In this document: positions 16,442-51,549 of the stretch, in pieces
Position numbering within the stretch: position 1 is the stretch's first letter
How the letters are laid out: each line of letters begins with the position of its first letter
Assembly (NCBI GenBank): GCA_035249225.1
Contig: DATFGS010000274.1
Coordinates: forward strand, 1 to 51,549
Direction of reading: 5' to 3'
DNA: 51,549 bases
Origin: Candidatus Methylomirabilota bacterium
Lineage (GTDB): Bacteria > Methylomirabilota > Methylomirabilia > Rokubacteriales > CSP1-6
Position numbers and translations under genes: made by a program
Notes under the pieces: model-generated
Seen by the model: the letters and a program-made list of their open reading frames with translations, nothing else
Databases searched by the model: none
What the model was told of the DNA's origin: nothing

Positions 16442-16446
16442 GCGAG

Positions 16447-16652
16447 GATTGTGCCGGTTGGAGGAACGACCCAGATCGCCGCCAACCCGATCTGAGGAAT
16501 GATGCGACTTGTTATCGGGTTAGCGCCGACCCCGGTTTCATCGTGCACAAGCCTGATTGTGCGCGGTGCCGGAGAGATCGTCGTCATAGCGCGGGGTTGC
16601 CCGGCTCCGGATTGTGCGATGACCTCCGCGGAGCAAAACCAACCGGGCACAA
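16447..16652. repeat. Intergenic GATTGTGC repeat cluster (candidate operator/iteron set)
   Basis: GATTGTGC at 16447-16454, 16555-16562 and 16610-16617. Inverted GCACAA at 16545-16550 (forming GCACAA-N6-TTGTGC) and at 16647-16652. This is a ~230-nt gap with no convincing ORF. Confidence 0.5.
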
Positions 16653-16673
16653 CTCGCGGTGTCCTTACACCGT

Positions 16674-16820: not shown

Positions 16821-17152
16821 TCCCGCCAGCCGGGGTGCTCGCCCAGCAGCCGAGCGAAGGAACAGTCGTCGTCGTGGCTGGGCTCGACGTGAAAGCAAAT
16901 CGAGCAGTCTCGCGGACCACCTTCCTCGTGAGTCCGCCATTCCGCCGCCTTCGCCACGGCGAGCAGGGCGTCGAAGGCGTTGACCGCGCGGACGATCAGG
17001 TCGGCGTCCGCCCGCATCTGGGGCGTCGGCTCATCCTCATCGGTGTAGAGCTGCGCGACCTCGGCCGTCCCGCCGAGGTACTGGTGCACGATCGTCAACA
17101 CGTTGACCGATCCGCTATCATCAACGACCCACGGCCGCGGCGTCGCGCTCAT
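16808..17152 (-). CDS. Hypothetical protein (114 aa)
   Basis: ATGA overlap with the integrase stop. Product is MSATPRPWVVDDSGSVNVLTIVHQYLGG... Confidence 0.6.
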   Translation of the reverse strand: MSATPRPWVVDDSGSVNVLTIVHQYLGGTAEVAQLYTDEDEPTPQMRADADLIVRAVNAFDALLAVAKAAEWRTHEEGGPRDCSICFHVEPSHDDDCSFARLLGEHPGWREWSA

Positions 17153-18009
17153 GGCGTCCACTTCAGCTTCCCGATCTCCCGGTGGAGCACCGCGTCGGAG
17201 ACCTTGGTGTAGATCTGCGTCGTCGCCAGCGACTCGTGGCCGAGGGCCTTCTGGATGACCCGGATGTCGACCTCGCGCTCGAGCAGGTCGGTCGCGAAGG
17301 TGTGCCGGAAGCGGTGCGGGGTGCAGTCCGGGACGTCGGCGTTCAGCCCCCAGACGTGGGTCATCGCCTCGATCGACTCGCGCCGGATGACCCGGTAGTT
17401 CGCCGTTGAAAGCAGGTAGTGCCCGAGCTTCATCTCCGGCCGGGTCGCGAGGTACTCCTCGAGCAGCGCGACCATGCCGGGGTGGAGCGCGACGACCTGG
17501 ATCTTCCCGCCCTTGACCGTCGCCCGGATGTGCGGCTGCGGCCCGCCGAGGGTGATGTCGCCGAGCTTGATCTCACAGATCGGCGTCACCCGGAGCCCGG
17601 TGTAGAAGAGCAGGGCGCGCACGACGCGCTCGTAGAGGGTGAGCGGGAGGGCCTGGAGCCGGTCCTTCTCGTCGGCCATGAACGGCCGGGGGAGGTTCCG
17701 CGGCTTCTGCATCAGCGGGACCTCGTCCATCGGGTTGGCCAGCCAGAGCCGGTGCTTCACGCCCCACTTGCCGAACGAGGAGAGGACCGCTTGCTTGAAG
17801 CAGAGCGTCGCGGGTTTGCACCCCGACGCCGACGCCGCCTGGAGCAGCGTCTTGCAGAGCGCCGGGGTGAACGCGCGGAGGTCGAAGTCCGGGCCGGCCT
17901 TGCGCTCCATCCGCCGCAGCTCCCCGCGGTAGCCGGTGAGCGTGCCCTTCGCCTTCCCGGTCATCTTCAGCTCTTCGAGATATGCCGTGATCGCATCGCC
18001 GAGTCGCAT
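17149..18009 (-). CDS. int: Tyrosine recombinase / integrase (XerC/D-like)
   Basis: FYTGLRVTPICEIKLGDI (Arg I), HRFRHTFAT (HxxR), LGHESLATTQIYTKV (His...Tyr). The start was trimmed to ATG 18009 with an AAGGGG SD. Confidence 0.9.
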   Translation of the reverse strand: MRLGDAITAYLEELKMTGKAKGTLTGYRGELRRMERKAGPDFDLRAFTPALCKTLLQAASASGCKPATLCFKQAVLSSFGKWGVKHRLWLANPMDEVPLMQKPRNLPRPFMADEKDRLQALPLTLYERVVRALLFYTGLRVTPICEIKLGDITLGGPQPHIRATVKGGKIQVVALHPGMVALLEEYLATRPEMKLGHYLLSTANYRVIRRESIEAMTHVWGLNADVPDCTPHRFRHTFATDLLEREVDIRVIQKALGHESLATTQIYTKVSDAVLHREIGKLKWTP

Positions 18010-18095
18010 ACGCCACCCCTTCGTTGTGACATTGCTCCGCCGCTTCTTCGGCGGTCGCTGGGTGGGGCGGATTGTGGGCGAGGCGGCCAGCGAGG

Positions 18096-18290
18096 TCAAG
18101 GGCGGTCCGCTTCCGGGTCGTATGGAGTGATGGTGGGCGGCTCCTCAAGGGTGAAGCGGATGTCTTGCCCCTTGTCATTCGGGAGTCGCTTCACGCCGAT
18201 GAGCTTCTCGTCGTTCGGCCTCTTGAGTAGGAGCAAGACCTTTGCCTCACTGAGAATGATCTGAATCCTCTTCGCTTCCCTTTTCACCAC
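18096..18290 (-). CDS. Hypothetical protein (64 aa) in a locally AT-richer segment
   Basis: GTG start. Product is VKREAKRIQIILSEAKVLLLLKRPNDEKLIGVKRLPNDKGQDIRFTLEE. Composition is visibly less GC-rich than its surroundings. Confidence 0.5.
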   Translation of the reverse strand: MVKREAKRIQIILSEAKVLLLLKRPNDEKLIGVKRLPNDKGQDIRFTLEEPPTITPYDPEADRP

Positions 18291-18541
18291 GCGGGCACCA
18301 CGACATCCGTCGGGTCGGTCACCGCGGCCAGCCGGTCGACGATCGCCTTAGCGTCCTTCGACGCGACCCCCTCCCGGTCGAAGACGGTGATGCAGACGAA
18401 CAGCGAGCGCCGGACCTGGGGCGGGTAGGGGACGTGGAGCTTCCCCGTCTCTAGGTCGCGCTGAATCGAGCGGGCGACCCGCACGGCGTCGTCGAGCGTC
18501 ATCTTCGCCGCCGCCTCGGCGATGGTCTGGGCCTGGCTCAT
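18284..18541 (-). CDS. Hypothetical protein (85 aa)
   Basis: The start was trimmed to ATG 18541 (ATGA overlap with the ATPase stop). Confidence 0.55.
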   Translation of the reverse strand: MSQAQTIAEAAAKMTLDDAVRVARSIQRDLETGKLHVPYPPQVRRSLFVCITVFDREGVASKDAKAIVDRLAAVTDPTDVVVPAW

Positions 18542-19875
18542 GCGGCGCTCCTCGCGAGCAGCGTGTTCACTTCCATGATCGCGGCCGGGTCCTTCGCCGC
18601 GACCTTCTTGAATAGCTCGATCGCGTCCTGGCACGCCGCGAAGTCGACCTTCTCGATGTCGTCCGTCCCGAACATCGACTTGAAGAGGCGGATGCGGGCG
18701 TCCTTGCCGATCGGCGGGTCCCACTTGTCGAGCTCGCGGTGGAGTTCCTGTTCATCGGACATCGGCCCGAGCGGGCTCTCGACCGCGGGCGGTGCGATGA
18801 CCGGAGCCGGGGCCTTGACCTCCGGGATCTGCGACTGGCGGAGGTCGGCCCGGATCTTCTCGAGCCCGGCCTTCAGGGTGGCGCTCGGCAACGGCTGGAT
18901 CTTCGCCCACTGGCGGACGCCGAACCCGATGGCGAGGAGCCGGGCCTTCGCCTCGACCTGCTCGCGCGCCTGACCGGGGTGGGCCTTCTGGAGTTCGGTG
19001 ACGATGTCCTTCAAGATCTGCTCGCGGTCGTCTGGAACAACTGTTTCTTGAGCCGACGCGGGGGCGGTGGCGCCGCTGCGGGGACTCGAACCCCGTTCTT
19101 CGCCTTGAAGGGGCGAGGGCCTACCCGTAGCCGACAGCGGCTCGGTCCCGCCGCGCGCCCAGGCCGCGAGCTTCGCGCCCGTCTCCTCGGTGATCGGCTT
19201 GTCGAGTGGGAAGAACTCCCGATGCTGCTCCTGCAGTTTGATCGGCTGCGGCACGCCCGGCTTGTCGGGCAGGAGGAGGATGCTCACGGTCAACTCGTAG
19301 GGGAGGTTCTTCTCGCAGATCGGAACCCACCCCTTGAACCCGGCGAGGGTCTGTTTCGGGACGACCTTCGTCTCGCCGCGCTCCTTGATAATCTCGATCT
19401 TGTCCTCCGCGCGCATGCACAGGATCAGGTGCGCGCGGCACTGGAGCAGCTTCGAGACCATCCGGCGGTGCTCGCCCTTGGGCTTCACCCAGGACAGCAT
19501 CTTGACCTTGTCCTCGCCGCCGAGCCGCTTCAGCTCCGCCTCCTGCATATCCAGGATGCCGCCCTCGCCCGCGTGCTCGTGCGAGAACGAGTCGACGACG
19601 ATGACCGGATAGCCGGCCTTGTCGGCGGCGACGATCGCCTCCTGATAGGCCGAGGGCGAGAACGGCGGATGGAGGTCGGCATGATCGAACTGGAAGCGGT
19701 CGGCGTAGTGCTTCGCGCGGCCGGCTTCGGTGTCGATGACCGCGAAGGGCTTGTCGCCCGACATCCCCTTGGCGAGGCGCATCGCGGTATAGGTCTTGCC
19801 GCCGCCGCTGGCGCCGGCCAGGCCGAGGATCAGGCCGACGCTCTCGCGCTTGGCCGGGCGGAAGGAGATGGTCAC
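18538..19875 (-). CDS. Sak4-like / AAA_24-type RecA-fold ATPase with long C-terminal extension
   Basis: Walker A GLAGASGGGKT and Walker B VIVVDSFSHE. GTG 19875 forms a GTGA overlap. The ORF stays open through an embedded tRNA-like element (19068-19141) into a ~180-aa C-terminal region. Confidence 0.75.
   Translation of the reverse strand: MTISFRPAKRESVGLILGLAGASGGGKTYTAMRLAKGMSGDKPFAVIDTEAGRAKHYADRFQFDHADLHPPFSPSAYQEAIVAADKAGYPVIVVDSFSHEHAGEGGILDMQEAELKRLGGEDKVKMLSWVKPKGEHRRMVSKLLQCRAHLILCMRAEDKIEIIKERGETKVVPKQTLAGFKGWVPICEKNLPYELTVSILLLPDKPGVPQPIKLQEQHREFFPLDKPITEETGAKLAAWARGGTEPLSATGRPSPLQGEERGSSPRSGATAPASAQETVVPDDREQILKDIVTELQKAHPGQAREQVEAKARLLAIGFGVRQWAKIQPLPSATLKAGLEKIRADLRQSQIPEVKAPAPVIAPPAVESPLGPMSDEQELHRELDKWDPPIGKDARIRLFKSMFGTDDIEKVDFAACQDAIELFKKVAAKDPAAIMEVNTLLARSAA
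19068..19141 (-). tRNA. tRNA-like cloverleaf (Glu-like anticodon UUC, C33, encoded CCA) nested in frame inside the ATPase ORF
   Basis: Minus-strand sequence: GCCGCTG TC GGCT ACGGGTA GGCC C TCGCC CCTTCAA GGCGA AGAA CGGGG TTCGAGT CCCCG CAGCGGC G CCA. It has a 7-bp acceptor stem, U8, GG in the D-loop, G53-C61 and a consensus T-loop. Position 33 is C instead of U. Confidence 0.6.
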
Positions 19876-20207
19876 GCCGGGATCCCCTCCGCGGCCGGCC
19901 GGGCGACCTCGAACGTCTCGCGGAGCTGCTTGTAGTGCTTCTCGCAGAGCCACTGCTTCATCTTGTAGTGGTAGTCCGCGATCGGGTCCTCGCAGATCCC
20001 GTCATCGTCGATCCGACACAGCGACGGTGTCTCGCGCTTCGCGATCTCCAGGTTCTGCTCGATGAGGCGGTAGCCCGCATGGTTGTGGTAGTACGTCATC
20101 GAAGACTCGGAGACGTCCTGCGCGGCCTTAACCGCCTCGCGCTCGCTGCCGGCCAGGACCTCGACCTCTTCGACCGTGACCCGCCGCACCGTGTACTTCG
20201 TGATCAT
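19872..20207 (-). CDS. Hypothetical protein (111 aa)
   Basis: The start was trimmed to ATG 20207 (ATGA overlap). Product is MITKYTVRRVTVEEVEVLAG...CEKHYKQL. Confidence 0.6.
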   Translation of the reverse strand: MITKYTVRRVTVEEVEVLAGSEREAVKAAQDVSESSMTYYHNHAGYRLIEQNLEIAKRETPSLCRIDDDGICEDPIADYHYKMKQWLCEKHYKQLRETFEVARPAAEGIPA

Positions 20208-21076
20208 CCCCGCGCCTCCTTCTCGGCGATCTCCATGTACTCGCGCTGCATCCATCGCGTCTCTTCCCAGGGCGGCAACTCGGCCGAGGCGACCCGGGTC
20301 GGGTAGCCCGGCCAGTGCCCCGACTTCAGACACTCGCCCCAGAGCTCGATCGCGCGGAGCACCTTCTTCGTCCCGAGGTCCCGCACCCCCGGCTCGAGGC
20401 CGATCACCGAGAGCGCGTGCGGGTCGTAGGCTTCCTGGACAACGAAGGTAAACTCCGGATCCGGCCCGCCGACCATCTGCACGCCGCGGCGGTAAAACGC
20501 GGCCTGGATGTCATAGCCGTTGCCGAACAGCGGGCCGCGCGCCCATGCCTCCGGGTGTGCCGAACCCTCGGTCGTCTTGTAGTCCCAGATCTGCGACTCG
20601 TCGGTGGCGATCCAGTCGAGGCGCGCCCGGCACCAGACCCCGTTCGGCTCCTGCCAGATCACCGTCTCCTCCGCCCGGCCGTCGCTGAACGGGCGCGGAG
20701 TGAAGACGTCGAGCTGGCGCTGACACGCCTTGGCCATCATCAGCACGCGCCCGACCTGCTCCTGGAGCAGGGGGATCTTCCCAGCCGCTCGGATCTCGTC
20801 CCGCAGCGCCTGCGCCTCTTTCTTTCGCCAGTCGTAGAACGGCACAACCTCGAAGCGCTCCGCCCCTTCCAGGACGTAGGCGTGCGCGGCGGTCCCGAGA
20901 TCGAACTTCCCGTCGTCCTCGCGCTCGAAATGCGGGTTCAGTTTCGGGTGCGCGGTCCAGGCGTGGAGCGGGCTCTGATCGAGCAGGATCTTCGCCATCG
21001 ACGCCGAGAGGGACGGGGCCGGGCAGGGGTCGGCGTGATAGAGCTCCGCCGCCATCGTGTAGATCCCGGGCTTCAC
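20204..21076 (-). CDS. PD-(D/E)XK exonuclease (RecE/Cas4-like recombination nuclease)
   Basis: GTAAHAYVLEG...ARLDWIATDESQIWDYKTT (D...D/E-x-K core). Adjacent to the Sak4-like ATPase. GTG start with a GTGA overlap. Confidence 0.75.
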   Translation of the reverse strand: MKPGIYTMAAELYHADPCPAPSLSASMAKILLDQSPLHAWTAHPKLNPHFEREDDGKFDLGTAAHAYVLEGAERFEVVPFYDWRKKEAQALRDEIRAAGKIPLLQEQVGRVLMMAKACQRQLDVFTPRPFSDGRAEETVIWQEPNGVWCRARLDWIATDESQIWDYKTTEGSAHPEAWARGPLFGNGYDIQAAFYRRGVQMVGGPDPEFTFVVQEAYDPHALSVIGLEPGVRDLGTKKVLRAIELWGECLKSGHWPGYPTRVASAELPPWEETRWMQREYMEIAEKEARG

Positions 21077-47165: not shown

Positions 47166-49451
47166 CTAGCCGGCTACGACGTTCTTGGTGGCGCTGCGGA
47201 AGTCGGAGAGATAGGTCGCGTACTCGTGCCGCAGCTTGTACTGGATCTTGTCGCCGTAGAACATCTGGCCGACCGTGGGCTGATCGGCCAGGAAGAACTC
47301 GGGCTCCTGACGCCCCTGGAGGAAGTCGACGCCGAGCGCCTCGCGACCACCGGTGCCGGGCGCCATGTGCACACCCCAGTCGGTCGCGTCGGTGAAGAGC
47401 GGGTTGCAGTTGATCCGCTCGCCGTTCTGCCCGAACCACTGGTAGACGGGGTTCGCGGCCGTGGTGCCGAAATACTGGGTCATGTTCAGCGTCCGCGCGA
47501 TACCCAGGAGGGCGTGCGGGACATCGAGCCAGAGACTCCCGAGCGGCGGGACGCCCAGCTTCTCGCCCGAGCCGGGCTCGGTCATATCGCCGAGCTGCAC
47601 GAGCTTGGCGATGACCTCGGCGGCACCGGTGGCGTCGGCGGTGAGCGCCGTCGACCCCGTGTTCCCGTGCCCGGCGTTGAACCAGGCGACCGAGTCGACC
47701 TGATAGGTGATGTTCGCGACCCAGTTGTCCTGCCAGATCCGCTTCGCCAGCGTGCGGCGGGCGGCCCGGCCCAAGCGGCCGACCAGGCGCGAGATCGCGC
47801 GGAGATCGTCGTTGATGATCAGCTTCCGCGTGATCGTCAGGATGTTACCGCGCTGGGTGATCGCGTAGCTGACCTGGTCGTCCGACACCGGGGTGATCTC
47901 CGCGTAGTCGGCGGACTCCGGGTCGACCACCGCGATGTCGCCGAAGTAGCCGAGCTGGGTCACGTACTTGGTGCGGAAGTCCTGCGCCGACCCGTAGATC
48001 GTGATCGTGTTCTCGTTGTACTCGGGCTCGAGATAGTCCATCAGGAGTCGGCGGTAGAGGGTGTTCGCGGTGATCTCGGCCCAGCTCGTCGAGTCGAGCG
48101 CTTCCGACACGCGCCCCTTCCGGAATCGCCCGGTGACCTCGTCGTCGCCGGTCAGCGTCACGTAGGCGTGGCGCAGGCTCTTGAAGCGGAGCCCCGGGTC
48201 GGCGCTCGCAGCCTCGCGCACCTTCGCGAGCGGCTGCTCATGGCCCTCCCAGTCTCCGCCGCCGACCGGGCCGCCGGCGTTCACGTTGCCGCGGATGCGG
48301 TCGCGGGCGCTGTCGGACATCGGGCCGCGCTTCAGGCCCTCCTCGATGCGCGCGCTGTCGACCTCGAACAGCCGGTCCATCGCGACCTGCGCCTTGTCGC
48401 GGCTGTCCATGGTCACGCGCCCGGCCTCGCCGTACCCGCGGACGTCGCCGCTCTTGTCGAGGGTCGCCAGGACGTCGATCTCTTCCTTCACGCGGGCAGA
48501 GATCTCCTCGGCGGTCGCGATCTTGCCGCCGAAGTCCTTCCGGATGCGCGCCTTCACGATGTCGGGCAGCTTCGTCGCGGCGACGGCCTCGGCGACCCGG
48601 CCCTGGGTGTCGGCGATCTGCTCGCGCTCCTTCTCGCGCGCGGCGGCCTTGTCCTCCGCCTCCTTGATGCGGGCGGCGATCATGGCCTCGACGTCGTCCT
48701 TGGGCGGCTTCTTGTCTGCCGCCTTCACGGCCTGGTCGTAGAGCGCCAGCAGGTCCGCCTCGCTGACCTTCTCGACGTCCTTGTCCTTGAGCAGATCCGC
48801 GTTCAGCTCCTTGATGCGGGCAACGAGTGCCGTCTTCATGGGGTCCTCCTTGGGTTCGCCGAGATCGAGCCCGGCCGTGGCGCGCAAGAATCGGCCGTCG
48901 GCCGAGGGCGCGGTGACGATGTCAACGCTGAAGAGCCGCTTCACTTCCTTGATCGTGCGGACCGCGCCCTCCTGGACGAAGCCCGCGAGGGTATCGACGC
49001 TGAGGCCGAGCACCTTGTCGACGATGCCGCGCTTCTGCAGCCCCAGGAGTTTTGTCTTGAGCCAGCCGGCGTCTTCGTGGATGTGCAGCTTCGCGTAGAC
49101 GCCGTCCGCCTCGACGCGCGGGTCCTGGAGATCGCCGACGACGTTCCGGATGATCGCGCCGTCGGCCGTGATGACGTCCTGCTCCTTGGCGTGCGCCATC
49201 CCGGCCTTGAACTGGTAGAGCCCGACGGGCGCGTTCTTCAGGAAGCCGAGCATCTGCTCGCCCGCCTCCTTCGCCCAACCCCAGCCGTTCGCGCTCGTCC
49301 CGAACTTCAGGACGCGGACCTCCCAGACCGAGCCGGTCTGATCCGCGCACCGAACGAACTCGAACCCGCCCGAGCCGACACGGTCCCAGGAGCAATGTCC
49401 CGCCTCGCGGATCGTGGCCGCGACCAGGTCGCGAATCTCTTTCTCGTTCAT
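47166..49451 (-). CDS. Fused prohead-protease-like / scaffold / HK97-fold major capsid protein (761 aa)
   Basis: The N-terminal ~200 aa have a His...Ser pattern (GMAHAKEQ...LGLSVDT) like prohead proteases. The central part is a charged coiled coil (KEAEDKAAAREKEREQ). The C-terminal ~330 aa are capsid-like. ATG 49451 has an ATGA overlap. Confidence 0.7.
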   Translation of the reverse strand: MNEKEIRDLVAATIREAGHCSWDRVGSGGFEFVRCADQTGSVWEVRVLKFGTSANGWGWAKEAGEQMLGFLKNAPVGLYQFKAGMAHAKEQDVITADGAIIRNVVGDLQDPRVEADGVYAKLHIHEDAGWLKTKLLGLQKRGIVDKVLGLSVDTLAGFVQEGAVRTIKEVKRLFSVDIVTAPSADGRFLRATAGLDLGEPKEDPMKTALVARIKELNADLLKDKDVEKVSEADLLALYDQAVKAADKKPPKDDVEAMIAARIKEAEDKAAAREKEREQIADTQGRVAEAVAATKLPDIVKARIRKDFGGKIATAEEISARVKEEIDVLATLDKSGDVRGYGEAGRVTMDSRDKAQVAMDRLFEVDSARIEEGLKRGPMSDSARDRIRGNVNAGGPVGGGDWEGHEQPLAKVREAASADPGLRFKSLRHAYVTLTGDDEVTGRFRKGRVSEALDSTSWAEITANTLYRRLLMDYLEPEYNENTITIYGSAQDFRTKYVTQLGYFGDIAVVDPESADYAEITPVSDDQVSYAITQRGNILTITRKLIINDDLRAISRLVGRLGRAARRTLAKRIWQDNWVANITYQVDSVAWFNAGHGNTGSTALTADATGAAEVIAKLVQLGDMTEPGSGEKLGVPPLGSLWLDVPHALLGIARTLNMTQYFGTTAANPVYQWFGQNGERINCNPLFTDATDWGVHMAPGTGGREALGVDFLQGRQEPEFFLADQPTVGQMFYGDKIQYKLRHEYATYLSDFRSATKNVVAG

Positions 49452-50329
49452 GCCGCCTCCAGTCGTAGGACGTCCGCCCACGCCGCCCGGTAGGGGGCCG
49501 ACAGGCAGCCGCACCCGATGGTTGATCGCGCGCTCCCGGCCGGGTCGCGCGGATAGAGCAGGTCCTCGTAGGGTTGGCCGGGCTGCGGCCGCACGCGATA
49601 GCGCGCGTCGGGCTCCCGGATCTGCCCCTCGGCCTCGACGTGGCCCTCGCGCCGCCAGCGCCCCATGTTCCCCGAGTGCTGCCACTGCTTCTGGAGATCC
49701 GGGACGAACCCCTTCGCGTCCTCGAGCGCGGCCTGATTCGCGATCGACTGCACGCGCCCGAGCTCGGTCCGCGTGATCGTCTCCGCGCGCTGCGCGATCG
49801 AGGCGAACACCGACGGCCCGGCCAGCGAGCCCGCGACCGCCTGCATGACCTCGTAGACGCTCTGCCCGCGGAGCACGCCCGCGCGGAGCGCCGTCGAAAT
49901 CTGCGTGATCGCATCGCCCGCGAGGCCCGTGATCAAGCTCGCCTGATAGGCGCGCGCGGCCTCGAGCAGCCGGCGCGACGGGATCGGGACGTGGAACATC
50001 AGGCCCGCCCGCACCAGCGGCTCCGCGGCCAGGCCCGCGCCCGCGTCCCACATGGCGAGCTGAGCCGGCGACACCGCGCTCTGATACTGCTCGACGAATC
50101 GGGCCATCACGTCGGTGATCCCGGCCTGCGTCTGCGCAAGGCGGAAGCTCGCGTAGCTGGCCGGGTCGAGGACCGCCAGTTCGGCGAGGACCATTTGCCG
50201 CGCCTGCTCCAGCGCGGTCAGCATCGCGCGCACCGCCTCGTCGGGCAGGCGGTCGATCAGGGCAGCCTGCGCGGCGACCTGCGCGGCGAATCGTTCCTCG
50301 GGGGTCGTGGCTTCGCGGACGACGATCAT
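49448..50329 (-). CDS. Head morphogenesis protein (Mu F / SPP1 gp7-like)
   Basis: RAETITRTELGRVQSIANQAAL core motif. ATGA overlaps with the portal and capsid genes. Confidence 0.8.
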   Translation of the reverse strand: MIVVREATTPEERFAAQVAAQAALIDRLPDEAVRAMLTALEQARQMVLAELAVLDPASYASFRLAQTQAGITDVMARFVEQYQSAVSPAQLAMWDAGAGLAAEPLVRAGLMFHVPIPSRRLLEAARAYQASLITGLAGDAITQISTALRAGVLRGQSVYEVMQAVAGSLAGPSVFASIAQRAETITRTELGRVQSIANQAALEDAKGFVPDLQKQWQHSGNMGRWRREGHVEAEGQIREPDARYRVRPQPGQPYEDLLYPRDPAGSARSTIGCGCLSAPYRAAWADVLRLEAA

Positions 50330-51549
50330 GCCGCTTTCTGTCCGCCCTTCTCGGTCGTCTGCTTCTTCTCGCCGATGTTGTCGCCGTTGCCCTCGCCCCG
50401 GCGCGCGAGCTGCGCCTTCAGCCGCTCGGCGTTCTGCTGGGCGTCGACGCCGCGGTAGTCCTTCGCCGCCGCGGCCGCCGTCGGGTCGAACTCTTCCTTC
50501 GCGTCGATCTCGAGGCCGAGTTGCGAGATCAGCCCGTTGAAGACGCGGCCCGCCGTTTCGGGGGTGATCCAGCCCTCCGCAACCGCCGCTTGGAGCGCGG
50601 TCGCCAGGGACGCGGCTGCCGCCACGGTGGCCGCCTGGTCCCGCATCGACAGTTCGGGCAACTCGATCCGGTACTGCGTCCGCTTCTCGCGCGCGAGCGC
50701 GCCGCGGAGGACGGCCTGGTCGAGCTGGAACTGGACGAGCGACTGGATGACATACTTGACTTCCTTCTGCCGGCGCGTGAGCCGCTTCACCGGGGGGAGG
50801 CCCATCTCTTTCGCCGAGGCGAAATTGACCTCGCCCGCGAGCCCGTACCAGTGCTCGGGGAAGCTCTTGCTCCCGAGGATGTGGCCGCGCATCAGCCGCG
50901 CCCACGAGTCCTTGTCCATCGCTTTCATCTCGGGCGCGACGGCTGCGAGCTTGACTTTTTCGTTATGCGCGAAGACCCCGTTCCGCCGGATGTCGGCCTT
51001 GAACTCGAGCACCCACTGCTTGATCTGGGGCGCCGTCATCCCCTCGAGCTCAACGTCCCAGACGAACGAGTTGAAGAGATTCGCGGCGTCCATCGCATCG
51101 AAGAGGAACTTGTCGTAGCCGTCGACCCAGTCGATCAGCGAGAGCAGATCGGACCGGCCGCGCTTGCCGTTGGAGATGTCGTTGACCTGGAAGAGCAGGC
51201 ACGCCCCGTTGTAGGCGACGTCGAGGAACGGATCGCGCTCGTCCTCGAGCACGCCCTCGAGCAGTTCGTAGTCGTCGCTCGCGCGCTGGGTGTTCGGGCG
51301 GACGACCTTCAGGTACCGCTCCGGAATGCCGTTCGCGCGGCCCTTCAGCACGACGCAGGTCTTGATCAGCGCGTTCTGCGGATCGGTGATGACCTGCGCG
51401 ATCTCCTGCGGGTCCACGTAACCCAGCCGCACGCGCCCGTCGGTCTCGTTGACGAAGACCGGGAAGCAGAGCTCGCCGTAGATGCCGAGCTCGCGGATGA
51501 ACTTGTCGAGGCGCATCTCGAGCTGGTTGACCGGATCGGTCCAGAACCC
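50326..51549 (-). CDS. Portal protein, C-terminal part (open at the window end; total about 527 aa with 485..1)
   Basis: Lies between TerL and the MuF-like gene. The ORF has no stop up to the window edge and continues in frame via the 125-nt overlap. Confidence 0.8.
   Translation of the reverse strand, partial: GFWTDPVNQLEMRLDKFIRELGIYGELCFPVFVNETDGRVRLGYVDPQEIAQVITDPQNALIKTCVVLKGRANGIPERYLKVVRPNTQRASDDYELLEGVLEDERDPFLDVAYNGACLLFQVNDISNGKRGRSDLLSLIDWVDGYDKFLFDAMDAANLFNSFVWDVELEGMTAPQIKQWVLEFKADIRRNGVFAHNEKVKLAAVAPEMKAMDKDSWARLMRGHILGSKSFPEHWYGLAGEVNFASAKEMGLPPVKRLTRRQKEVKYVIQSLVQFQLDQAVLRGALAREKRTQYRIELPELSMRDQAATVAAAASLATALQAAVAEGWITPETAGRVFNGLISQLGLEIDAKEEFDPTAAAAAKDYRGVDAQQNAERLKAQLARRGEGNGDNIGEKKQTTEKGGQKAA
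51425..51549. repeat. Exact 125-nt direct repeat, copy 2 (matches 1..125)
   Basis: Base-by-base identity. Confidence 0.95.

Follow-up and report, generated by a model that had tools for sequence, protein, structure and literature searches.

A complete tRNA-Glu-like gene lying in frame within the ATPase gene of a temperate phage

What is a complete tRNA cloverleaf doing inside a protein-coding gene: is it a working phage tRNA, the core of an attachment site, a spacer between two genes that only seem fused, or an inert newcomer? The question is raised by the window (the whole 51,549-nt stretch of DNA that was analysed), which represents a circular tailed temperate phage of ~51.4 kb binned with a Methylomirabilota MAG. 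An ORF on its minus strand, 18538..19875, codes for 445 aa from a GTG at 19875 and wholly encloses the tRNA-like element at 19068..19141. The element is translated in frame as aa 245-270 of an ATPase (...TE PLSATGRPSPLQGEERGSSPRSGA T...), with the frame unbroken, just as an earlier note on this DNA had described.

By structure, the element is a complete tRNA-Glu-like gene. Read on the minus strand, it comprises an acceptor stem GCCGCTG/CAGCGGC followed by T8, a D stem GGCT/GGCC (with one G-U pair) closing the loop ACGGGTA, an anticodon stem TCGCC/GGCGA with the loop CCTTCAA (C33, the anticodon UUC, and A37), a variable region of 4 nt (AGAA), a T stem CGGGG/CCCCG with the loop TTCGAGT, and finally the discriminator G and CCA, both encoded in the DNA. 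All stem pairs (21/21) are intact on direct reading, and every structural detail of the cloverleaf given in the earlier note was found in the sequence as stated. The predictors accept it as well: ARAGORN calls it tRNA-Glu(ttc), the single tRNA in the 51.5-kb window, and the Rfam RF00005 match, 19071..19141, covers model positions 1-71 of 71 with 51.5 bits (E = 1.6e-9), the gathering score being 29 bits. The second Rfam match, that to mascRNA (RF01684), reaches 32.7 bits, short of the 42.5 set as its gathering score. Folding to minimum free energy gives the cloverleaf; the fold-energy z-score against shuffled sequences (-1.08) does not discriminate, as is to be expected in a 70% GC sequence, and stability is not the relevant test for a tRNA. 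ARAGORN found no tRNA in any of the related loci (0/26), so that the call is not a background artefact of GC-rich DNA.

The invariants engaged in tertiary interactions are present on direct reading (U8, A14, G18, G19, A21, G53, T54, T55, C56, A58, and C61), and U33, replaced here by C33, is the only one of those checked that departs. C33 in place of the near-universal U33 is rare in elongator tRNAs and usually lowers the efficiency of decoding without abolishing it. The identity set of E. coli tRNA-Glu comprises U34 U35 C36 A37, G1-C72, U2-A71, U11-A24, U13-G22..A46, and the absence of position 47. The element has the Glu-type features U34 U35 C36 A37, G1-C72, U13-G22, a 4-nt variable loop without position 47, and G73, and departs from the E. 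coli set at C2-G71 and G11-C24. Two of its three reading frames are open on direct reading.

As regards the enclosing gene, the N-terminal domain of its product matches Pfam PF13479 over aa 18-167 (46.7 bits, cut-off 27), its Walker A P-loop, G24-x-G26-K27-T28, is invariant in alignment A1, and residues 1-243 are modelled by AlphaFold with pLDDT values mostly of 80-95. The protein belongs to phrog_1366, a family of unknown function, and a sequence search gave no relative with a solved structure; a RecE-like exonuclease (phrog_412, DUF3799) is encoded two genes upstream. The label of a Sak4-like ATPase given earlier is acceptable as a putative assignment at the level of Pfam AAA_24. The exonuclease, ATPase, and integrase genes form an early operon on one strand. 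Two helical modules make up the C-terminal part of the ATPase (Table 1), of which module 1 is the usual C-terminal domain of the family, with profile matches at residues ~275-385 of proteins of 339-542 aa.

The whole linker between the ATPase domain and module 1 is made up of the tRNA and a trailer of ~35 nt (19033-19146). Nucleotide homology to three relatives (L144, L145/L146, and L151) ends at 19147-19149, 6-8 nt before the tRNA, and homology to P0123, a syntenic relative, picks up again near aa 282-286; in the AlphaFold model residues 246-279, with pLDDT below 50, lie between two confident domains. L151, the closest relative of the ATPase, appears frameshifted, which makes its linker uninformative. 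Over codons ~241-290 GC3 falls from 0.9-1.0 to 0.52-0.68, and a CAI-like index from ~0.85 to 0.32-0.39. The codon statistics of 19033-19146 are non-coding-like, GC3 and codon adaptation collapsing exactly there, and AGG, AGT, and ACA each occur fewer than 2 times per 1000 codons in the phage genome, which bears out the codon anomaly noticed earlier at the tRNA. Linkers of this ATPase family are hypervariable in both length and sequence, and the one in the window is predicted to be disordered. Since the homologues have no tRNA and the nucleotide homology stops just short of it, the tRNA in the linker is, judged from the alignments, a lineage-specific insertion or replacement. The short direct repeats GACCGAG and GACCGCGAG beside the cassette are too weak to be called a target-site duplication, and a scan for promoter and terminator motifs found none adjoining the tRNA.

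Outside the window, none of the collections searched yielded a relative of the tRNA. Exact matches are absent from 185,579 GTDB species genomes for the 42 nt that run from the anticodon loop to the 3' end, and from JGI metagenomes for the 34-nt 3' stretch, a single mismatch being enough in either search to hide one. An exact-pattern scan of IMG/VR with the 3' half, a search of the same collection with k-mers of the D arm and T arm, and BLAST of 19000-19150 against GenBank phages gave no match either, while the best plasmid match of that segment is 77% over 79 nt. A loose acceptor-stem pattern (GCCGCUG) in the GTDB genomes retrieved, among the matches listed, essentially tRNA-Thr genes, identical at no more than 55 of 71 positions; with the anticodon added to the pattern, the matches in IMG/VR were exclusively tRNA-Glu(UUC) genes, situated in three tRNA arrays of jumbo phages, which have the acceptor stem alone in common with the element.

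The earlier note had allowed for two separate genes with an intergenic tRNA, fused in appearance for want of a chance stop codon, and a variant of this reading is an assembly chimera. Stop-free stretches are indeed common in 69% GC DNA, and in the NCBI annotation of the same contig the only part of the ORF called is its C-terminal 158 aa, given as a protein in its own right (P0121 = HJR01808.1). P0122, which with P0123 is one of the two closest relatives of the C-terminal part, was annotated on a 1.4-kb contig as a free-standing gene of 159 aa (JGI metagenomes, scanned with this protein as guide, gave no match), and small stand-alone proteins with module 1 do occur. However, the ATPase frame contains no stop before or within the tRNA, so that ribosomes must read through it, the TTG start used by NCBI is not preceded by a Shine-Dalgarno motif on direct reading, and no credible ribosome-binding site or start codon follows the tRNA; the NCBI split would be explained most simply by annotation rules which bar a CDS from overlapping a tRNA. 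The fusion is moreover the norm in the family, as its members of ~310-540 aa combine ATPase, linker, and C-terminal module within a single ORF, the linker being variable among homologues of ~310-380 aa. P0123, of 421 aa, has the same two-module C-terminus behind a 21-aa Ala/Pro linker without tRNA, the gene order around it being exonuclease, small ORF, 421-aa fusion, small ORF, and integrase. An independent gene caller gave the full 445-aa ATPase on the ENA contig; the ENA and Logan assemblies both have this product, and the NCBI contig agrees with them, which makes a chimera unlikely. Two genes that merely appear fused are therefore very improbable, and the ATPase with its C-terminal modules is, by homology, a real single fused gene.

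The integrase is co-oriented with the ATPase in the same early operon and lies ~1 kb downstream of the tRNA, the distance given in the earlier note; an upstream start would lengthen it to 18099. Many tyrosine integrases target tRNA genes, and in some small actinophage integrase systems attP lies inside a gene. The earlier proposal that the tRNA copy is the attP core, which the integrase would recombine with a host tRNA-Glu gene, integration splitting the ATPase gene, draws on the position and strand of the integrase and on its distant similarity (~30% identity) to small actinophage integrases, but is contradicted by related prophages. Those of L144, L146, and L147, whose integrases are 81%, 60%, and 57% identical to that of the window (L145 is a sister contig of L146 with the same integrase), adjoin the 3' end of the host secF, and none of the three (0/3) contains a tRNA; even L144, with the closest integrase, has no segment similar to the tRNA. 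The flanking genes of L144 and L147 match Pfam SecD_SecF_C, and the host flank of L146 has the same sequence as that of L144. At the prophage/secF joint GCA(C/G)AATCAGGC is followed by TTTTGCTA, with the stop codon of secF inside the core. The homologous attP in the window, ~2.5 kb from the tRNA, contains three GCACAATC sites (16447-54, 16555-62, and 16610-17), an inverted near-copy at ~16646-53, and a core formed by the inverted repeat GCACAA-TCAGGC-TTGTGC at 16545-16562. The exact searches with the 42-nt and 34-nt stretches, reported above, also count against a host counterpart of the tRNA. The proposal is hardly credible, and on the evidence of the secF junctions and of the homologous attP the tRNA was ruled out as the attachment site; judging from the aligned junctions, the phage integrates via this separate attP (16445-16655) into the 3' end of the host secF. 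That this integrase group takes the secF 3' end as attB, its attP being of a simple kind built on an inverted-repeat core, is a solid result by itself.

Table 1. Features of the ATPase-integrase region of the window and the evidence on which their coordinates are based
Feature	Coordinates	Strand	Evidence
AAA_24 (Sak4-like, RecA-fold) ATPase domain, aa 1-243, with conserved end motif LAAWARGG	19147..19875	-	Pfam PF13479, phrog_1366, alignment A1
tRNA-Glu(UUC)-type cloverleaf with C33 and encoded CCA	19068..19141	-	ARAGORN, Rfam RF00005, minimum-free-energy fold
3' trailer of the inserted cassette, aa 270-281, low GC3, rare codons CAA GAA ACA GTT GTT CCA	19033..19067	-	GC3 and CAI-like profile, pLDDT, P0123 alignment
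C-terminal helical module 1, aa 284-350, 'GFGVRQWAKIQPLP..L'	18826..19026	-	alignment with C-termini of ~320-aa homologues, pLDDT 87-96
C-terminal module 2, aa 374-445, and stop codon	18538..18756	-	common to P0123 and the 390-aa protein of L144
Tyrosine integrase, XerC/D-like, 286 aa	17149..18009	-	Pfam PF00589, phrog_1, ENA gene call
attP	16445..16655	-	alignment with prophage/secF junctions of L144, L146, and L147; motif clustering

Two readings of the tRNA remain live, a co-transcribed functional phage tRNA, which we favour, and an inert recent passenger. The favoured reading, held tentatively and at somewhat less than even chances, is that of a genuine, recently acquired phage tRNA gene which came to lie at one of the rare places in a tightly packed operon where an insertion is tolerated. 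A cassette of ~110 nt, comprising a tRNA-Glu(UUC)-type gene and its ~35-nt 3' trailer, would have taken the place of the disordered inter-domain linker of the ATPase; as it is stop-free in the frame used and of a length that keeps the downstream domain in frame, the gene still codes for one 445-aa protein, with the tRNA read as a 25-aa stretch of unstructured linker. Having no promoter of its own and lying on the sense strand of the operon, the tRNA would be produced as part of the early exonuclease-ATPase-integrase mRNA. From part of the transcripts a mature, CCA-ended tRNA-Glu would then be released by RNase P and 3' processing, each release severing the mRNA copy concerned; on ribosome-covered transcripts translation would continue through the element and yield the full-length ATPase. 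The first of the explanations put forward earlier, in which a phage tRNA functions while nested in an mRNA or after being processed from it, appears compatible with the evidence. Several points weigh against function. C33 could mark a pseudo-tRNA; once the tRNA was excised, the ATPase mRNA would lack a stop codon, which is costly, so that selection might act against processing; and with GAA making up only 17% of the phage's Glu codons, codon supplementation is a weak argument. As no second genome with the tRNA was found in the collections searched, covariation or conservation gives no support for selection on the RNA, and its intactness may merely reflect a recent insertion, which the unadapted trailer also suggests.

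The passenger reading, which we consider a serious possibility though rather less probable than not, sees in the element an inert pseudo-tRNA: a tRNA-bearing fragment of the host or of another phage, captured by illegitimate recombination at a domain boundary and intact-looking only because it is recent. It would be translated as linker and give no useful tRNA, and it would survive solely through the tolerance of a disordered linker for whatever sequence is in frame and free of stops. This is consistent with C33, with the absence of a promoter of its own, with its uniqueness to this lineage (26 related loci and P0123 are without it), and with the hypervariability and predicted disorder of the family linkers; with two of the three tRNA frames open, a tolerated in-frame landing is not improbable. 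In its codon adaptation the trailer, on which RNA structure places no constraint, is as poor as the tRNA itself, and this argues for a recent arrival. On the other hand, the full set of stem pairs, every checked invariant but U33, and the encoded CCA are intact, whereas in a neutral segment of a 69% GC genome such tRNA features should not last long, and lone tRNA genes of temperate phages are generally thought to be functional. A tRNA-like element with a role other than decoding, be it an RNase P/RNase Z cleavage site which tunes the expression of the parts of the operon before and after it or uncouples the one from the other, a decoy for a tRNA-targeting defence nuclease of the host, or an attB for a tRNA-targeting satellite, seems distinctly unlikely. 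It would suit the position on the sense strand in the middle of a polycistronic early operon and, by analogy, the C33-type change, as changes in the anticodon loop have been reported by which phage tRNAs evade anticodon nucleases (PMC10264068); tRNA-like elements cut from longer RNAs occur, the mascRNA match of the window being subthreshold (32.7 against 42.5 bits), and satellites that integrate within helper-phage genes are known (PMC10111431). Its single occurrence, with no conserved partners, the lack of a satellite or second integrase in the regions examined, and the non-stop ATPase mRNA which cleavage would produce speak against it. We also consider it unlikely, if a little less so, that the locus has two uses, the RNA segment either being cut out by RNase P and 3' processing, as a tRNA-Glu that works or as a tRNA-like decoy, or else being translated into the linker of the full-length protein; maturation and translation would then compete on each transcript and set the balance of tRNA supply, full-length ATPase, and downstream operon expression, including that of the integrase.

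If the tRNA is matured, the locus would be a clear case of one phage DNA segment coding, on the same strand, for a functional tRNA and for part of a genuine protein, in which processing necessarily destroys the carrier mRNA, and it would bear on the uptake of genes by dense phage genomes and on overlapping RNA and protein coding. A two-use locus, if true, would amount to a form of regulatory coupling of which no example has been described in bacterial viruses, while an inert tRNA would demonstrate that disordered linkers can absorb foreign non-coding DNA. Annotation pipelines barring CDS/tRNA overlap split or drop such genes, as in the NCBI record of this contig, which keeps only the C-terminal part of the ATPase.

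The roles of phage-encoded tRNAs have been reviewed or tested (PMC10264068, PMC10865867). The element in the window resembles phage tRNA genes in its canonical cloverleaf, encoded CCA, location in a temperate tailed phage, co-oriented neighbours, and unusual anticodon loop, a departure also reported for some phage tRNAs. Unlike them, since they are situated between protein genes or in arrays, it lies wholly in frame inside a conserved gene, as its linker, and has C33 and no detectable relatives; a shallow literature search gave no precedent for a phage gene with a tRNA nested in its frame. As in tRNA-gene attachment sites, a tRNA sequence lies within an ORF of a temperate phage, with a tyrosine integrase ~1 kb away, but the relatives of this integrase use the 3' end of secF as attB, the attP is located elsewhere in the window, and a full-length cloverleaf including the 5' half exceeds what an attP needs. 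An attP within a gene is known from integration-dependent immunity in mycobacteriophages and from the SSV1 integrase gene. Lysogeny of the tRNA-dependent type requires an attB overlapping a host tRNA gene of the same isotype, which is destroyed by integration (Guerrero-Bustamante and Hatfull 2024, PMC10865867). The phage studied here is likewise temperate, with a single tRNA gene and a tyrosine integrase, but the attB of its relatives is at the secF stop codon and their junctions are without a tRNA.

The enclosing protein is similar to Sak4 recombinases in being a RecA-fold core ATPase with Walker A, encoded beside a RecE-like exonuclease in a phage early operon (PMC2896510, PMC5928155). It differs from them as a member of a phrog_1366 subfamily, known here from sequence, in which the conserved WARGG end is followed by a linker of variable make-up and the C-terminus has one or two additional helical modules. 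By analogy with mitochondrial tRNA punctuation and with MALAT1 mascRNA, the cloverleaf would be one lying in a longer transcript and excisable by RNase P and RNase Z, but those tRNAs and tRNA-like elements are found between coding regions or in non-coding RNA, whereas the tRNA in the window lies in frame in a CDS. Lastly, in SINE exonisation, tRNA-derived repeats enter eukaryotic coding regions, and the two cases are alike in that a tRNA-derived sequence is tolerated in a non-structured part of a protein. SINE exonisation, however, is eukaryotic, depends on splicing, and involves degenerate relics, whereas the window contains an undegraded tRNA in the gene of a bacterial virus.

The element that the earlier note had described as a near-perfect tRNA cloverleaf, on the minus strand at 19068..19141, reads GCCGCTG-T-C-GGCT-ACGGGTA-GGCC-C-TCGCC-CCTTCAA-GGCGA-AGAA-CGGGG-TTCGAGT-CCCCG-CAGCGGC-G-CCA, and it is accepted by ARAGORN as tRNA-Glu with the anticodon ttc, the sole tRNA call within the window. 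The Rfam tRNA model matches it from end to end (51.5 bits, with the gathering score at 29; E = 1.6e-9), and the cloverleaf is its minimum-free-energy fold; the energy z-score of -1.08 is unremarkable, as is expected of GC-rich DNA. The 21 stem pairs are all of standard type, one of them G-U, and U8, A14, G18, G19, A21, G53, T54, T55, C56, A58, and C61 are kept. The sole replaced position among the invariant nucleotides checked is U33, which is C, as had been read together with the UUC anticodon. ARAGORN calls no tRNA in any of 26 related GC-rich loci, so the call is not background noise.

The tRNA lies wholly inside the ORF 18538..19875 (445 aa) and is translated as aa 245-270 without breaking the frame, as the earlier note stated, while its proposal that two genes and a tRNA only appear fused there is rejected on several grounds. 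The first 243 aa form an AAA_24 ATPase domain (PF13479, 46.7 bits; phrog_1366) with thousands of homologues, the best of them 310-380 aa long, in which a conserved ATPase ending in "..AWARGG" is followed by a linker variable in length and sequence and then by a helical module of ca. 60 aa aligning with window aa ~284-350. In a profile search with the C-terminal part, this module 1 turned up both in proteins 339-542 aa long, where it occupies residues ~275-385, and in certain small stand-alone proteins. A second disordered linker, rich in Pro and Ala (aa 352-372), sets it apart from module 2, and the modules are paired mosaically with divergent ATPase domains. The most telling relative is P0123, a protein of 421 aa encoded on a 12.2-kb contig in the same gene order as in the window (DUF3799 exonuclease, small ORF, ATPase, small ORF, integrase, and, further along, a DksA/TraR zinc-finger protein). 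It comprises a divergent ATPase, the linker "AASAPAPGNRAPAPAPAPAAQ", devoid of any translated-tRNA-like sequence, and both C-terminal modules (60% identity). In L144, the prophage locus with the closest integrase, the ATPase is a 390-aa fusion with module 2. Finally, direct reading found neither a stop codon upstream of the tRNA in the ORF nor a Shine-Dalgarno motif ahead of the TTG start used by NCBI, and on the ENA contig all 445 aa are called as one gene. NCBI lists just the C-terminal 158 aa (18538-19013; HJR01808.1 / VKA83_09260) as a hypothetical protein; it appears that the tRNA split or suppressed the ATPase annotation, most likely owing to rules ranking tRNAs above CDSs. A 159-aa gene called from GTG at nt 145 of a 1,416-bp contig (P0122, JGI sample 3300056388) matches the C-terminus of P0123 and shares a 90%-identity cluster with it; its call stops short of the contig edge, so the 144 nt upstream presumably hold some obstacle to extension, whether a stop codon, a frameshift, or a tRNA.

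Nucleotide homology to the window ends at 19149 in L144, at 19148 in L145/L146 (one prophage from sister runs), and at 19147 in L151, the closest ATPase relative, i.e., 6-8 nt ahead of the tRNA, and protein homology to P0123 resumes near aa 282-286. The cassette thus delimited, 19033-19146, comprises, besides the tRNA of 74 nt, two codons and a trailer of ca. 35 nt. It coincides exactly with a zone of low third-position GC and rare codons: over codons ~241-290 GC3 falls from 0.9-1.0 to 0.52-0.68 and a CAI-like index from ~0.85 to 0.32-0.39, which bears out the drop noticed earlier. In the AlphaFold model aa 246-279 have a pLDDT below 50, between a confident ATPase domain (~aa 12-245) and a helical module (aa 284-348, pLDDT 87-96). 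The breakpoints, the codon zone, and the disorder together indicate that the cassette stands in place of a disordered linker, hypervariable across the ATPase family, and does not split it. The tRNA is an intact gene on the sense strand of a genuine single ORF, forming the disordered linker of the ATPase. Two of its three frames are open, which makes a tolerated in-frame landing unlikely but not extraordinary.

Positions of the attachment sites, the ATPase modules, and the tRNA acceptor stem
Feature	Sequence	Position	Description
attP	window	16445-16655 (core 16545-16562)	three GCACAATC copies and an inverted near-copy in about 210 nt
attP core	window	16545-16562	GCACAA-TCAGGC-TTGTGC, perfect inverted repeat around a 6-nt spacer
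Further GCACAATC copies flanking the core	window	16447-54; 16610-17
Inverted near-copy	window	about 16646-53
att core	L144	3182-3199
att core	L146	3382-3399
att core	L147	10962-10979
Module 1	window	aa 284-350, within 18538-19026	helical
Module 2	window	aa 374-445, within 18538-19026	helical
tRNA acceptor stem	window	19135-19141 / 19072-19078	GCCGCUG/CAGCGGC

The first 125 nt of the window are identical to 51425-51549, an assembly overlap indicating that the genome, of ca. 51.4 kb and 69% GC, is either circular or terminally redundant; the identical contig is on record in NCBI (in a Methylomirabilota MAG), ENA, and Logan. The large terminase, portal, and protease/capsid protein encoded in it identify a tailed phage and the tyrosine integrase a temperate one. 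A 961-aa ORF (47166-50051) has hits to head-maturation protease as well as major-head PHROGs and may, judging by these hits, code for a protease-capsid fusion. The early recombination operon (17149-21076) comprises genes for an exonuclease VIII-like protein, a 111-aa protein, the ATPase, proteins of 85 and 63 aa, the integrase, and proteins of 114 and 45 aa, overlapping or closely spaced, with the integrase gene co-oriented inside it and not at a divergent regulatory junction; this order recurs in L144 and on the P0123 contig.

It had been proposed that the tRNA is the attP core for the integrase ca. 1 kb away. Integrase homologues were collected together with their contigs and the junctions compared: L144 (81% amino acid identity, and 83% nucleotide identity across the gene), L146 (60%), and L147 (57%). 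The convergent host gene after the integrase matches SecD_SecF_C in L144 and L147 (E = 3e-41 and 1e-60, respectively), the host flank of L146 is the same as that of L144, and ARAGORN finds no tRNA in the three loci. The prophage/host junctions align with window 16545-16652, sharing GCA(C/G)AATCAGGC, past which the prophages run into host TTTTGCTA..., the end of secF, and the window into phage sequence TTGTGCACG...; TCA of the motif is the secF TGA stop codon in L144. GCACAATC occurs four times in the window, three of them at attP, against 0.86 expected by chance over its entire length. It is well supported that the 3' end of host secF is the attB of this integrase group, with the stop codon in the 6-nt spacer of GCACAA-TCAGGC-TT(G/T)TGC. 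The L145 contig ends (11162-11173) exactly at the att core ...GAATCAGGC, while L146 (3382-3415) continues into host secF, which fits an assembly break caused by mixed free and integrated forms. L144 has no tRNA-like segment, and no exact counterpart of the 3' half of the tRNA was found in GTDB genomes or JGI metagenomes. The junctions at secF, the separate attP in the window, and the failure to find a counterpart of the tRNA refute the proposal. In the same way tRNA-dependent lysogeny, for which attB has to lie within a tRNA (PMC10865867), is refuted. The secF attachment site, a by-product of the tRNA analysis, was found in no paper as a prophage-integrase attB in a full-text search.

The tRNA is specific to the window's lineage; searches of IMG/VR, GenBank phages, PLSDB plasmids, JGI metagenomes, and GTDB genomes (the last by exact patterns only) yielded nothing closely related. 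In its body it resembles tRNA-Glu, with U13-G22, G73, a variable loop of 4 nt, and the anticodon UUC followed by A37. The GCCGCUG stem in GTDB genomes belongs, among the matches listed, to tRNA-Thr in 131 of 134 ARAGORN calls on 120 stretches, and in its identity the tRNA may be mixed, Thr-like in the acceptor stem and Glu-like in the remainder. The same acceptor stem is found in unusually long (79-83 nt) tRNA-Glu(UUC) genes with the anticodon at position 37 in three IMG/VR phages of 100-140 kb carrying arrays of 17-30 tRNAs (L148 5472-5554, L149 3494-3572, and L150 6213-6291).

A motif scan found no promoter or terminator adjoining the tRNA, and given the operon of overlapping genes it would be carried on the early mRNA. 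Folding into the cloverleaf would then allow RNase P and 3' processing to cut out a tRNA-Glu ending in CCA, with loss of the mRNA copy concerned, while ribosomes traversing the tRNA segment would produce the full-length ATPase. Because all structural and tertiary features except U33 are intact, we tentatively favour, at somewhat below even chances, a functional, recently acquired phage tRNA. That it is an inert passenger in the ATPase linker is possible at a slightly lower probability: C33, the cost of a non-stop mRNA, and the modest use of GAA (17% of the phage Glu codons) all count against tRNA function, and the unadapted trailer suggests that there may just not have been time for decay since the insertion, but such a passenger has to be squared with the same intact features. 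The altered anticodon loop of the tRNA could, purely by analogy, serve to escape tRNA-targeting defences (PMC10264068, which treats neither position 33 nor tRNA-Glu).

A shallow literature search found no precedent for a nested in-frame phage tRNA, and the present one, as known from its sequence, is a single orphan instance. Among known kinds it comes closest to the ordinary tRNA genes of phages; what sets it apart is its nesting within a conserved gene, in frame and on the same strand.
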